In this document: one piece after another, positions 2,553 through 57,122 of the stretch
Layout: each line of letters starts with the position of its first letter
How positions within the stretch are numbered: position 1 is the first letter of the stretch
Source: Eledone cirrhosa
Lineage: Eukaryota
NCBI GenBank assembly: GCA_964016885.1
Contig: OZ024740.1
Coordinates: forward strand, 268,832,001-268,896,000
Direction of reading: 5' to 3'
Length of the DNA: 64,000 nucleotides
The notes under the pieces: model-generated
Told to the model about the DNA's origin: nothing
The model's input: only the letters and a program-made list of their open reading frames with translations
Databases searched by the model: none
Made by a program: the position numbers and the translations under genes

Positions 2553-2938
2553 AATAATAATAAATTTGAAGACTAAAATCCAAAGAGGGCTTGATAAGGA
2601 TAAATATATATCAAGTTTCAGAAGATTCCGTTAAGGGTGAAAGCAGCGATTCTTTGCTTAAACTTTAATCTGTTATTTTAATAAATTAATATATATATAT
2701 ATATATATATATATATATATATATATATATATATATATATATATATAGTAATAAGAATAAAATTGAAGACTAAAATCCAAAGAGGGCTCGATAAGGAAAA
2801 TATATATCAAATATTTATTAAAATAACAGATTAAAGTTTAAGCAAAGAATCGCTGCTTTCACCCTTAACAGAAGATCCCGTTAAGGGTGAAAGCAGCGAT
2901 TCTTTGCTTAAACTTTAATCTGTTATTTTAATAAATAT
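2553..2938. mobile_element. Two fold-back pLTR fragments of PLE family A separated by (TA)n
   Basis: Each is an inverted 3' piece plus a direct piece of the unit seen intact at 17106-17288. HHR-like CAGAAGA...GAAA cores at 2619 and 2869. Confidence 0.75.
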
Positions 2939-3107
2939 ATATATATATATATATATATTTGATTTAAAAATTTACTGGTAAATATCAAAATCACTAACGG
3001 AGCCAGGTTATGAATTCAAAAATTTGTAATGCCATTTACATTAACTGTTCAAAAGAAATATGATAATTATAATGAAAATAATTTGCATAATTTAGTCAGT
3101 ATGAGGT

Positions 3108-3300
3108 TGGGGTATTGGCAGTATCGATAGAGCGGCGGATCAATTGTTTTACAGTATTTAGTTACGACGTTCTACGTTCTGAGATCAATTTTGCCTTTCA
3201 TCCATTCACGAGATCGTACCAGTTAAATACTGGTACCGATATAATCTATTTTTCCCTTCCTCGAAATTTCTGACCACGTCCCAATGCTAGAATGAATCAT
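3108..3300 (+). mobile_element. tRNA-derived SINE with Meta-like central domain, degenerate
   Basis: A-box-like tggcagtatcgataga, then ttttgcctttcatcc and gtaccagt shared with the other copies. Confidence 0.7.
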
Positions 3301-3399
3301 TTAGTCAGTATTACATACACTCTGTTAAGTTAGATTAAATTAACCAGCTTTCTTTTGTATCTCCCTAATCTTCTCTTCCTTGCGTATGAGATAGCTGCA

Positions 3400-4670
3400 A
3401 TTATGTGATATCCCCAATGCGATGTAACCAACTCACGGCAGTGGCATTAGGGTGTGTGGGGCCCTTATTCCCAGGTGGACGAAGATATAGGTATTCATTT
3501 AGCATATGTTTAGCGGCCTGCTCTTGCTAGCCTCACTGGCAAGCAGCTGAAAGACGTATTTCCAAGTGAATCGGCTAATACCTGGGCGAAGCAGATTCAG
3601 AGACACCTACTCTCTCCGAGAGAATTTAGCGCCTGGGTGGACTGCCATATTGGAGGTGACATTCAGTTAGACGTATCGAGATGCCTGCTGCTAATTAGCT
3701 GTCGAGGTTTAAAGCATATTGAAAACTGAGTTCAGCAGCCCTGCTGCCTGATGAGAGAAAAAGCAGCGTGTCATCGGGCGATGTATGTCCAGTAGCTGCA
3801 TATTCTTATCTATGACATGACATCAAATAGACGAATTAGGTCTATTGAGGTCGGGGGTTCCAACCTATATATAAGATGCACTCTATGAAGAGGTACAGCA
3901 GCAATGGCTGAGAACACATATAGATACTCAGTAGGTGTAGGACAGAAATATCTGATGATGAGTTATAAGTTGTTCAGGTGAATATCTAATATCTTAGTGC
4001 AGGAGAAGCATACTTCACCGCACTGTAAACCAAGGTTAGGGCACTGGTACGTATGGTGGATGTATTAGTACCGCATGACGAGCCTGCTAAGAAGTGTAGA
4101 AGGTTGTTCCGCGTGGATACCTTAACACGTACCGACTCGAGAGGTTGACTGTATGTTAGCTGCTGGTCCAATTGCACTCCGGCTGGTGCGGCGTTATATG
4201 TGAAGAGTGTGTCATCAAGATTAATGGTGAGCTGGCGATTGGCATCCTTGGTATTTAAGTGCAATGCCGATGCAGTCGTAATTGCCATGTTCACCTTCAT
4301 TCCCACGGTCTTGAAATATGTTGCCGGTTAGGTCATATCTGCTCTTAGTACGTTCTTTACGTTAGTCCAGACTCTATCGGAGTGGAGAAGACAGAGGTCG
4401 TTTGCAGAGCCATACTATCGTGGTGTTATCTGGGATATATCACTAATGTACAGGCTGAAGAACATGGTGGTAGTACCCAGCCTTTAGGGACTTCATTACG
4501 AAGGCGGTGCAGTCTGCTGGTCTGTCAGTTGCTGGTGTTCTAGACAAACCTTTGGTTGGCTAGGATGTTGCAGATAAACCGCACCTCGTGATGGTCAGGA
4601 ATTGTTCTTAGTAACTTCAGGATCATATCATGGTGCTACACAGTGACATGGGCTGTTGTAAGGTTGACCA
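3400..4670 (-). mobile_element. Degenerate Vingi/Ingi-like LINE (RT C-terminus)
   Basis: KVSTRNNLLHFLAGSSCGTNTSTIRTSALTLVYSAVKYASP resembles the LAGxxWGAxxxTLRTAALALVYSxAEYxAP motif. Downstream VSLNLLRPGISRF resembles LNRLRTGxGR. Confidence 0.75.
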
Positions 4671-4672
4671 GC

Positions 4673-4770
4673 ATAATTCTTTCTACTTTTGGCACAAGGC
4701 CAGCAATCACCCAGTACATTACAGGTACTTTATTTTATCGACCCCGTAAGGATGAATGGCAATGTTAACA
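4673..4770 (-). mobile_element. SINE 3' half
   Basis: Reverse complement of catccttacggggtcgataaaataaagtacc...gctggccttgtgcc. Confidence 0.85.
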
Positions 4771-55100: not shown

Positions 55101-55572
55101 CGTTTCTTTAGGATTTGTATTAACATATACAAGACGGTAGAAATAAATGAAAAACGTATTTATCTAACCATTTATTCTAAACTCACATCAATAATCTGTA
55201 AAACAAGGACATAAGCATTACCTAAGTAAATTCATAAACTGTAATGCAAATATTACCCCCTGTGATTTCCAAGAATTCGAGCGCTACTTAATATGAATAT
55301 TAAGTGAAACATCATGCTCATAAATCGTTTTATTCGCCGACGTGATGATTATAAAGGGATATGATGAATAGATAAATCAAAATCATTGGGTTAAATAATT
55401 TGGTACCGAAGACATGTAAATGTAAATGATAACCTGGAAAAGAGGATTTAAGTGTATTTCGAAAGTTATATGCACACGCACACACACACACACACACACA
55501 TACACACACACACACACACACACACACACACACATATATATATATATATATATATATATATATATATATAAA

Positions 55573-56200
55573 ATAGGGACATCAGATATTTTGACACATA
55601 CATACGACTTTCATATATCACCAAAGCGGCCCCTGTATATATATATATATATATATATATATATATATATAATACAGGGGACGCATTGGTGATATATAAA
55701 AATGAGCATGATGTGTCACTTAATATTCATATTAAGTAGCGCTCGAATTCTTGGAAATCACAGGAGGTAATATTTGCATTACAGATTATGAATTTTCTTA
55801 GGTAATGCTTATGTCCTTGTTTTACAGATTATTGATGTGAGTTTAGAATAAATGGTTAGATAAATACGTTTTTCATTTATTTCTACCGTCTTGTATATGT
55901 TAATACAAATCCTAAAGAAACAACTAACACTCATAAAAAAGGAACAAATAGGACCTACGTTTAACACACCTTCTATGTAAACGTTTGCACAAAGTTTGTG
56001 TGTTTTGCATGCAGATATAGTCTTAGATATTTATACAGTTTAGTACTATGTGATGATTATGTGAGATATTGCCTCATTTGATGTATGTTTTGTTATTCTT
56101 TCTTACAATCGTTTTACATTCTCCGTCTTTGATTCCCATTCAAGAAGCTTCAACTTAGTCATTACCGAAATCAACGCGGTCATATAACATTCGTCCATAT
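55573..56200 (-). mobile_element. Inverted TIR-element ends: left end 55573-55635, right end 55675-56200
   Basis: tatatcaccaaagcggcccctg-(TA)n-caggggacgcattggtgatatataaaa; the body is the reverse complement of 49545-50067. Confidence 0.8.
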
Positions 56201-56419
56201 ATATATATATTTATTAAAATAACAGATTAAAGTTTAAGCAAAGAATCGATGGTTTCACAAATTTAATCTGTTATTTTAATAAAAATTTGCTCTACGGTTC
56301 TTATATATCTAATATATATTTATCCTTATCGAGCCCTCTTTGGATTTTAGTCTTCAAATTTATTATTATTACTATATATATATATATATATATATATAGA
56401 TATATATATATAAATATAT

Positions 56420-56623
56420 AAGTATGTACACGTACATACATATATGTATACAGACATACAGTAGTATGTATATATATATACATACATGCACACATATATA
56501 TAGCTACGTATGGATTCACCGAACATTTATTATAATGCTCGGTGTGTTTGTAAACAAACATCCCGTATTAAGCCGTAGTGTCTAGCAACCATCGTTGCTC
56601 GTTTGTTCAACACTGACAAAGGA
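56420..56623 (-). mobile_element. Diverged relative of the retrozyme-like unit
   Basis: Minus strand tcctttgtcagtgttgaacaaa...ttataataa...tgtctgtatacatatatgtatgtacg aligns with the unit from 51242 onward. Confidence 0.7.
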
Positions 56624-56627
56624 TATA

Positions 56628-57122
56628 TATATAAAGAATGAATAATAACAGGTAGACATCATAAAAAGGTAATTTATTCCGTGTGCTTACAAGTGTTTCC
56701 ACGGTGGTACTGCAGCCTAGTTATGCTACGTGCAAATTCACAAGTACTTGCAGAACTCAAATATCCAATGCTGTGACTACTGTTTCCTCTGCTCTGAGGA
56801 AACAGTGGTTACAGCATTGGATATTTGAGTTCTGTAAGTACTTGTGAATTTGCACGTAGCATAACGAGGCTGAATTTGCACGTAGCATAACTAGGCTGCA
56901 GTACCACCGTGGAAACACTTGTAAGCACACGGAATAAATTACCTTTTTATGATGTCTACCTGTTATTATTCATTCTTTATATACACTCCGGAATACTGAA
57001 GGATCAGGAACTAAGTTTCTTCAACAATTCTTCCATAACTCGTAGAGTAACCTCTTACCGTACGTCAACCATATCCAGTGTTGTAATTAACCATTACTAC
57101 ATCTTGGATAATCCTATACCTA
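56628..57122. mobile_element. Fold-back pLTR fragment (arms 56628-56789 / 56797-56983) with tail
   Basis: Inverted arms joined at the HHR core; TA flanks. Confidence 0.8.
56790..56927 (+). ncRNA. Hammerhead ribozyme with ~110-nt stem II
   Basis: tgct-CTGAGGA-aacagtggt...accaccgtg-GAAACACTTGTA-agca. Confidence 0.72.

Follow-up and report, generated by a model that had tools for sequence, protein, structure and literature searches.

What fixes the ends of inverted, fold-back insertions in the genome of Eledone cirrhosa? The genome is AT-rich and 3.0 Gb in size, and the stretch analyzed here, called the window throughout, is 64,000 nucleotides (nt) of contig OZ024740.1. When the window was compared with itself with microsatellites masked, we found many inverted pairs whose outer ends adjoin (TA)n. 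Judged by their sequence, the fold-backs are the 3' ends of Penelope-like retroelements (PLEs), of the Hydra clade and of Neptune type, set within (TA)n. The initial annotation of the window had proposed that such insertions end a few nucleotides upstream of a bulged hairpin, which would tell the reverse transcriptase (RT) where to start copying. The first part is confirmed and extended here: insertion ends fall just before a bulged hairpin, beyond chance. They do so at two sites, each with its own hairpin, and most head-to-head pairs combine one end of each kind.

To follow the ends beyond the window, we used a random sample of 140 stretches of 10 kb, taken in even steps across the larger contigs (1.4 Mb). 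It held 645 inverted alignments, of which 103 were asymmetric, 2 were symmetric, and 540 lay outside the analysis; both symmetric candidates adjoin microsatellite-like sequence. Removal of duplicates left 95 asymmetric fold-backs in 49 clusters. The common fold combines a lower stem of 4 base pairs (bp) with an upper stem of 1 to 7 bp; the 3' side has a 2-nt bulge, and the loop measures anywhere from 3 to more than 100 nt. The lower stem is mostly RCUC/GAGY, and it is GUUU/AAAC in family B. Minimum-energy folding of long stretches often misses this motif, so descriptors and co-variation were used instead.

Searched for within −4 to +12 of the short-arm end, the motif was present in 47 of the 95 fold-backs and in 21 of the 49 clusters, against a mean of 6.7 and a maximum of 12 in 100 shuffles with the same descriptor. 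With other forms of the descriptor the counts were lower: a 5' bulge matched 10 of the 95, no bulge matched 9, and other bulge sizes and sides matched 7 to 15 overall. Shifted windows gave 3 to 16 and the opposite strand gave 4. The descriptor was derived from examples in the window but was written after part of the first 80 stretches had been seen; in the 60 stretches that were unseen, the motif was found in 22 of 48 fold-backs. When anchors were chosen by sequence alone, 22 of 31 clusters had both upper pairs, where shuffling of partners gave a mean of 8.8 and a maximum of 17 in 20,000, and the excess appeared only at a bulge of 2. The first upper pair was U-A in 12 of these clusters and C-G in 11. 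Two broader searches were set aside. A relaxed descriptor had a high background (54 observed against 20 in shuffles), and its 8:0 G-U count was built into its score; a loose genome-wide pattern was uninformative, with 184,740 matches against 175,038 for the reversed control.

We defined the gap as the number of bases between the last base common to both arms and the first base of the hairpin. The initial annotation had named, as the outcome that would count against its proposal, ends that track only TA-like microhomology and keep no fixed offset to the hairpin. Tracking of TA alone was not seen. The offset from short-arm end to hairpin is sharp within each family, although it is not one fixed number: it lies at about 1 to 7 nt across families, with a few copies at 9 to 12 nt.

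The hairpin also occurs twice in succession. Two serial hairpins had been recognized in family C, with copies that end before the first (17321, 41272) or the second (17523, 36933, 41823). These ends hold, but the arrangement is not peculiar to family C; two hairpins in succession within the terminal repeat, close upstream of the ORF (open reading frame), are the general layout. Among the TA-joined ends of family A in the random sample, 16 lie just before hairpin 1 (site 1) and 19 lie 3 to 11 nt before hairpin 2 (site 2), so that the two sites account for 35 of 40. For family C the corresponding ends number 15 and 27 (42 of 49). In the searched loci, the two sites hold 37 of 40 TA-joined ends in family A and 71 of 74 in family C. 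Hairpin 2 follows the long-arm end, just before the ORF, and is present only in read-through copies: in families A (L002, L003, L020, and L088), C (41543), N (19714), and G, in cluster 20, and in L036. Long arms never carry it, and therefore hairpin 2 must act on a precursor. In family A its closing loop is often C(UUCG)G.

How the two sites are combined is equally regular. Head-to-head pairs were counted in sets that had been assembled without regard to their ends: of 35 pairs, 26 combine a site-1 with a site-2 end, and there is no pair of two short or of two long ends. Left out of the 26 are 29 short-plus-long pairs of family C and 12 pairs from family A loci selected by their tails, for which the queries favored one junction or the tail. 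Junction spacers vary among the 26 pairs; thus, most of them are separate events, although some may derive from a parent fold-back by inheritance. In five of the seven fold-backs in which the ORF decides the matter, it is the short arm that extends beyond the other in the 5' direction; two show the reverse, and in one additional case the arms are equal. Some long arms consist of the tail only (L076, L051, and L176). Thus, in those cases the short arm was not copied from the long-arm complementary DNA (cDNA).

The 5' junctions involve hairpin 2 as well. Among full-length copies (L296 to L309), 6 of 14 ORF-bearing copies of family A begin within −23 to +7 of hairpin 2, and the 5' junction of element N in the window (19703) likewise lies at hairpin 2. 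Such junctions may mark a transcript start or a roadblock. Apart from this, palindromes that resemble helix II of a hammerhead-like core (2869-2890, 17360-17400, and 41670-41700) are where the fold-back junctions in families A and C are concentrated, and two identical cDNA ends could anneal there.

Relatives in other organisms carry the motif too. Homologues of the family A protein number 721 at E ≤ 1e-20, and all but four of the 120 listed are 37 to 44% identical to it. A metagenome scan with a single protein found no relative; an alignment-based scan yielded 77 loci in 70 families. The strict motif stands upstream of the ORF in 39 of the 46 families with enough sequence and in mid-ORF in 1 of 46 (shuffle mean, 2.8). 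At least two motif anchors occur in 26 of 36 nonredundant 5' untranslated regions (UTRs), against 0.26 in shuffles. Of 66 cases in these UTRs, 52 have a Watson-Crick pair in the first upper position (shuffles 28, maximum 41); it is U-A in 15 of 26 first hairpins and C-G in 22 of 26 second hairpins. ACU directly follows the hairpin in 52 of 66 cases (L314 to L390), which suggests recognition of single-stranded sequence 3' of the stem. Of 17 loci with a second repeat copy, 15 place its end at −1 to 5 nt before a hairpin, where about 0.12 is expected per position. That count omits a match in L363 that is not the real hairpin, which is 23 nt away, as well as two nonterminal repeats within the L366 ORF, and it contains related copies (L349 with L369 and L362 with L363). 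Finally, we aligned 50 hairpins, 44 found through sequence anchors with short loops and 6 from the window: with 92% of cells paired and 58 double changes, the alignment exceeds each of the 500 shuffles and every slid control. Three lower pairs are invariant and are therefore uninformative on structure.

Which elements these ends belong to can be read from their ORFs. Frames at 15957-16460 (minus strand), 21682-22323, 31279-32139, and 45155-45772 contain GIY-YIG-type motifs and stop just before the inverted repeats, which fixes the sense strand of the hairpins; read-through copies of family A run on into the ORF. Open frames of 713 to 767 amino acids with YRDD, YIGLT, and DKT occur in four long loci listed, with RWR in three of the four. 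By the motif definitions in the available text of PMC8557442 (Craig et al. 2021), families A, D, and N are of Hydra type, an assignment made from sequence motifs. They and their relatives are short elements in which RT and, at the C terminus, a GIY-YIG domain share one ORF, and they insert in (TA)n. RWR and DKT (an altered DKG) are present in family A, and among the 120 homologues listed of 721, RW[KR] is found in 116 and DK[TS] in 119. The CxCX5C linker is present in 115 of these 120 and in all three window ORFs of Hydra type. As to the CCHH motif, a single cysteine was seen by eye between the two core motifs. Pfam gave a weak GIY-YIG match for the 15957-16460 ORF (E 0.0015, below the cut-off) and no match for the full-length protein. 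Naiad identity was rejected; the endonuclease is C-terminal, and the endonuclease ORFs end just before the 3' UTR in all window cases and, in the long loci, follow RT motifs.

Family B differs in its linker, CX4CxxC before a C-terminal GIY-YIG domain in the 31279-32139 ORF, with an RT fragment upstream, and the fold-backs of cluster 1 carry a domain 60% identical to the one in that ORF. The motif definitions in PMC8557442, as far as its available text gives them, point to Neptune type; the linker is common to Nematis, so the clade is not fixed. What the long arm has in excess of the short arm is the known tail of PLEs, which accessible parts of PMC8557442 and of PMC3846280 (Arkhipova et al. 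2013) describe on inverted copies.

Hammerhead-like cores (CUGAUGA...GAAA-like) were seen by eye in families I, B, and G, with a variant in family A. No hammerhead ribozyme appears among the 150 Rfam rows listed of 230 for the window or at the gathering score in 13 hairpin-bearing loci; the latter had no Rfam match of any kind at that threshold. None of the window rows listed is relevant to the hairpins: they include palindromes and microsatellites with microRNA-like matches, besides a single tRNA row. Hammerhead cleavage was dropped as a cause of the ends, as the distance from the cores to site 1, which lies downstream of them, is tens to hundreds of bases, and a SECIS-type explanation was also considered and dropped.

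What do the hairpins do? In the anole element of the Poseidon clade studied by Frangieh et al. (2024; PMC11167929), according to the available text, both target strands are nicked and extended, and copying begins at two internal sites whose spacing equals the tail. RNA is needed to +172 although the start lies at +111 to +118, and a dimer is predicted. Reading the genomic pattern together with this biochemistry, we infer, with fair but not full confidence, that the hairpins are docking sites that start RT on the AU-rich bases just 5' of them, and that the nicked strands prime one site each on a single RNA. That the hairpin marks the ends, which TA microhomology alone does not, is supported; that it positions RT is the best reading of that pattern. 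In outline, the read-through transcript of a partial tandem would carry both hairpins in its 3' part. A protein, perhaps a dimer, would bind the lower stem and bulge. One target strand would pair with the RNA over 1 to 5 nt and prime at site 1, and the other strand would prime at site 2. The site-2 copy would contain the tail and would either halt near site 1, leaving a tail-only arm, or displace the first copy. Head-to-head joining of the two new strands, often at a palindrome, would complete the insertion. Where only one of the sites is primed, ordinary noninverted copies would result, with or without the tail. The wider proposition, that in Hydra-clade and at least some Neptune-type PLEs a doubled RNA signal sets a dimeric RT-endonuclease to start at two fixed internal positions of one RNA, with both strands of a single target break as primers, seems to us evenly balanced. 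If it is true, hard-wired twin priming would be the origin of inverted repeats and tails in PLEs, and the hairpin, about 20 nt long, would be a tag that could be transplanted to direct insertion into (TA)n by a telomerase-related enzyme.

Several other accounts have to be weighed against priming at two docking sites. As the main alternative, the hairpins might guide the GIY-YIG endonuclease on a DNA intermediate, so that a snap-back or tandem cDNA is cut in a staggered manner, one strand before hairpin 1 and the other before hairpin 2, and then joined to the target. Such cutting would equally give tail-only arms, pairs with one end of each kind, and a longer arm on either side. The near invariance of the lower-stem sequence suits it, as do wobble counts that leave the folding strand unfixed. 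In the accessible text of PMC8557442 the tail is attributed to endonuclease-mediated resolution, and the endonuclease of the Drosophila virilis element required the tail for recognition, as reported in the available part of PMC11167929. However, loops of 3 to more than 100 nt and co-variation of the upper stem require a single strand, and the variable offsets and TA-compatible end bases (1 to 5 nt, in 21 of 22 motif clusters by a hand tally without control) match primer pairing. According to the same part of PMC11167929, a purified protein of a related clade starts copying by target priming at both sites that bound the tail. Cutting would further require a joining step. We know of no joining activity in these Penelope-type proteins, and altogether we regard cutting as unlikely. 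Still less probable is a single priming at site 2 followed by fold-back of the cDNA, which would copy itself and stop at the complement of hairpin 1, much as at a template boundary. This would yield short-plus-long pairs, the arms have equal reach in many small fold-backs, and junction palindromes are common and were taken as a sign of self-priming in the accessible text of PMC3846280. Self-copying needs the short arm to lie within the long arm, though, and this is contradicted in the five of seven decidable cases, in elements D and N, and in the tail-only pairs. It also faces unpaired site-1 ends (8 in family A and 4 in family C in the random sample), and it leaves unexplained why a motif at a similar offset marks site 2. 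It could hold for a subset of short perfect palindromes.

A variant keeps the hairpins as start signals but derives each arm from a separate RNA, with its site picked independently. No strand displacement is then needed, and both sites are indeed used alone at similar rates (16 site-1 and 17 site-2 ends in family A in the random sample). About half of the pairs should then be symmetric; none of the 26 classified pairs is (binomial, 3e-8 if events are independent), and we give this variant very little weight. We think just as little of the idea that the hairpins serve transcription or translation of the ORF that follows and that ends fall nearby only through AU-rich flanks. The hairpins do lie 35 to 140 nt before the ATG, the preceding 10 nt have a higher AT content than the UTR (0.77 against 0.62), and the 5' junctions of family A near hairpin 2 are what a transcript start might give. 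Against this, the 560- to 570-bp tandem unit of family G is too short for an ORF and retains both hairpins, and ends are sharp at both hairpins across many unrelated families. The least credible account is that ends follow TA microhomology alone and the hairpin is incidental. Ends do carry short TA-compatible homology. However, the TA runs of 7 and 8 nt in family A (at +20 and +31) receive none of 80 ends, whereas the runs of 4 and 3 nt before the hairpins receive most; a caveat is that the longer runs are part of the hairpin loop, where they may be inaccessible.

Some observations also weigh against docking and twin priming. The strict descriptor misses 48 of the 95 fold-backs and 28 of the 49 clusters; the misses are uncurated and include decayed copies and unrelated inverted repeats. 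Offsets vary between families (1 to 7 nt and sometimes 9 to 12 nt), site 2 of family G lies up to 14 nt and one long end of family B about 22 nt before the nearest candidate, and 9 of the 35 pairs have one end off both sites. Some copies may have inherited their ends from a parent fold-back, and most family C search matches share the junction of the query. The folding strand is not settled by G-U against A-C counts, which are 7 to 2 in this genome and 5 to 8 in other organisms. Sharp ends and tails also characterize the young families J and K, in whose searched copies no motif was found. [quoted passage not shown]

Within the window, family A provides the type example. Its copy at 17125-17288 (plus strand) is a long arm, with site 1 at 17199 and a tail that runs to site 2 near 17288. 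Hairpin 1 occupies 17202-17247 (plus strand) and consists of GCUC, UA/UA, a UC bulge, GAGC, and a 32-nt loop. The gap of 2 nt given for family A by the initial annotation is right at 17199/17202; one of the arm ends cited with it lies at 42107, not 42106. That end closes the short arm of the fold-back at 41945-42107, whose hairpin 1 is on the minus strand (42025-41980) with its outer pair mutated. In the fold-back at 2751-2938 the short arm ends at 2938 (plus strand), and the long arm (minus strand) lacks the 5' strand of hairpin 1. Further plus-strand copies of hairpin 1 lie at 32959-33004, inside a fold-back at 32814-33039, and at 56289-56334, inside a copy at 56207-56369.

Other pairs of arm end and hairpin were exact as first given. 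In family E (12314-13110) the short arm ends at 12314 (minus strand) and the long arm is shared up to 13020, 5 nt from hairpin 1 at 13026-13044 (plus strand). In family F, hairpin 1 is at 33149-33175 (minus strand), the short arm ends at 33506 (plus strand), and the pair 33182/33175 has a gap of 6. The family C fold-back at 17321-17523 has a site-1 end at 17321 (minus strand) and a site-2 end at 17523 (plus strand), with hairpin 1 at 17451-17474 (plus strand) and a gap of 5 from 17445. Hairpin 2 of this family is at 41522-41543 (minus strand) in a read-through arm and is followed by an ORF start of family A type, and a tail-only copy at 36851-36933 (plus strand; hairpin 36859-36882) runs from site 1 to site 2 with (TA)n on both sides. 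The family D pair had to be moved from 46890/46896 to 46891/46895, with a gap of 3. Its hairpin 1 (46895-46935, plus strand) has a mismatched outer pair and belongs to an inverted insertion with GIY-YIG-type ORF ends at 43059-47001; the short arm (minus strand) extends about 380 nt beyond the long arm in the 5' direction. Two pairs described as having degenerate hairpins were borne out. Pair 12164/12169 belongs to family G (fold-back 11648-12290, hairpin 1 at 12169-12198, a mutated hairpin 2 at 11742-11759) and has a gap of 4; the upper stem is mutated in this copy and pairs in most others. Pair 56983/56985 belongs to family H (hairpin 1 at 56985-57048, plus strand, 48-nt loop, short-arm end 56628) and has a gap of 1.

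Of the cases originally listed as not conforming, two do conform. Family B has the same fold with its GUUU/AAAC lower stem at 49224-49262 (plus strand) and in a duplicate at 54506, each with a gap of 2, and at 32775-32811 (plus strand), downstream of the 31279-32139 endonuclease ORF. A family B-like hairpin at 13152-13190 (minus strand) has a compensated upper stem. The end positions of family B rest on the window and the random sample. The element at 18163 is the tail, on the minus strand, of an insertion at 18295-23660. It is part of family N (18160-23660), a decayed, near full-length Hydra-type copy (19703-23660, plus strand, ATG at 19870) head to head with a 5'-truncated long arm (19702-18160, minus strand). 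Hairpin 1 (18290-18211, minus strand) has a 65-nt loop, and its gap is 4 in L187 and 12 for the short arm in the window. Hairpin 2 (19714-19840, plus strand) is a long-loop pairing that ends 30 nt before the ATG; a shorter, weaker pairing is also possible. A 235-bp unit is duplicated at 77% identity within the family N 3' UTR (18470-18930 and 23026-23486). In the tandem-array family the GUUU-type hairpin is degenerate at 51081-51107 (plus strand) and intact in L123. The 51081 hairpin is similar to what follows the long end of cluster 39 and so may be a hairpin 2. The array itself has a 483-bp unit with internal (TA)n palindromes and spans 50617-52470. Hairpin 1 also occurs at 14895-14981 (minus strand), within the tail of the element whose GIY-YIG ORF is at 15957-16460; at 1699-1717 (minus strand) in family I, downstream of the hammerhead-like core seen by eye; and at 57405-57428 (plus strand) in a further family, cluster 2 of the random sample.

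The palindrome at 42717 was rightly listed as not conforming. It is family J (42714-43035, with a second copy at 50160-50476) and has a tail but no conforming hairpin, as is also true of the fold-back at 5985-6922 (family K, the 6045/6917 family). Family J is a very young, near-perfect palindrome with a fixed tail; all 40 scored matches are at 99 to 100%, among at least 1,000 candidates. Several clusters (9, 11, 23, and 36, with L039, L051, L123, L125, L134, and L170, and cluster 4, with L061 and L069) have short tails and, beyond the end, other small stems with 1-, 3-, or 4-nt bulges, and these are possibly a second subtype of the signal. The tandem unit of family G has its two hairpins 140 nt apart (11720-12290; L263, L264, L267, L268, and L271); with a hammerhead-like core after hairpin 2, it is a retrozyme-like nonautonomous derivative.

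Other repeats share the window. A duplication of about 2.9 kb (47140-50065 and 52473-55321, 98 to 99.5% identity) contains nested insertions of families A and B and others. A 700-bp composite of a family A fold-back, (TA)n, and another repeat is present in four copies (41945-42649, 49343-50065, 54625-55321, and 55682-56369; 89 to 93% identity), as if it were one moving unit. At 350-960 there is the 3' end of an RTE-like long interspersed element (LINE) with an (ATG)n tail; ends of this type recur and by eye have no hairpin. Frames at 58455-62600, with endonuclease and RT fragments, are what we take to be a decayed L1/Tx1-like LINE. A repeat of about 190 bp, resembling a short interspersed element (SINE), has many copies (4673-4769, 9369-11440, 14016-14147, 17887-18070, and 24121-24480), and a tRNA-like match (32.1 bits) lies at 37230-37300.

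How do these elements compare with known systems? The elements, the tail, and internal initiation are already known. The Hydra-clade PLEs in the available text of PMC8557442 likewise have one ORF of about 700 amino acids with RW[K/R], DKT, and the CxCX5C linker, a (TA)n target, pseudo-LTRs (long terminal repeats), an adjacent inverted copy, and an optional tail. Their tails are 30 to 40 nt, whereas those found here are mostly 45 to 190 nt. In that text no structural signal at the tail is described, the words hairpin and stem-loop are absent, and the origin of inverted, tailed insertions is called an open problem. PAc, the Anolis Poseidon element, as described in the accessible part of PMC11167929, resembles the present elements in having two internal starts that bound the tail, an AT-rich target, extension of both strands, and a requirement for RNA 3' of the start. 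It differs in that its start lies inside an AC-rich stem loop within the ORF and that no conserved motif, twin hairpin, or one-of-each rule is reported; the RNA binding motif was left unmapped. In the letters extracted from its Fig. S1, whose order is unreliable, we saw by eye a pairing, UUC-UG...CA-UU-GAAC, that is motif-like but surrounds the loop.

For the motif, its doubling, and the one-of-each rule, we found no description in searches of the open-access literature and Rfam. Such a compact, co-varying, doubled motif with a strict one-of-each rule allows exact mutants and exact predicted products. It also helps annotators to find true ends and nonautonomous derivatives, which are dense here (95 asymmetric candidates per 1.4 Mb). 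In the twin priming of L1, reportedly described by Ostertag and Kazazian in 2001, both target strands prime on one RNA and an inverted insertion results. There any internal match serves as the second site and the arms have hardly any overlap; in the present elements RNA structure fixes both sites, and the arms usually duplicate the same body. A small RNA stem that is recognized by its own RT and sets the start is also known from the 3' stem-loops of stringent LINEs and SINEs and from the bulged epsilon of hepadnaviruses. LINEs prime 3' of the stem, at the RNA end, and epsilon templates from its bulge with a protein primer, whereas in the present elements the signal is doubled and copying would begin 5' of the stem. 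The initial annotation had likened the hairpin to the template boundary element of telomerase. Both are short helices with a conserved base beside the template, bound in telomerase by a related RT (PMC4993307, in its available text), but the polarity is wrong: the telomerase element sets the 5' stop, and our hairpins, with their sense given by the ORFs, lie 3' of the presumed start. A stop-like side effect of hairpin 2 is possible, given the 5' junctions that cluster there. PLE enzymes are the sister group of telomerase, and the signal therefore bears on how RNA structure came to position an internal template.

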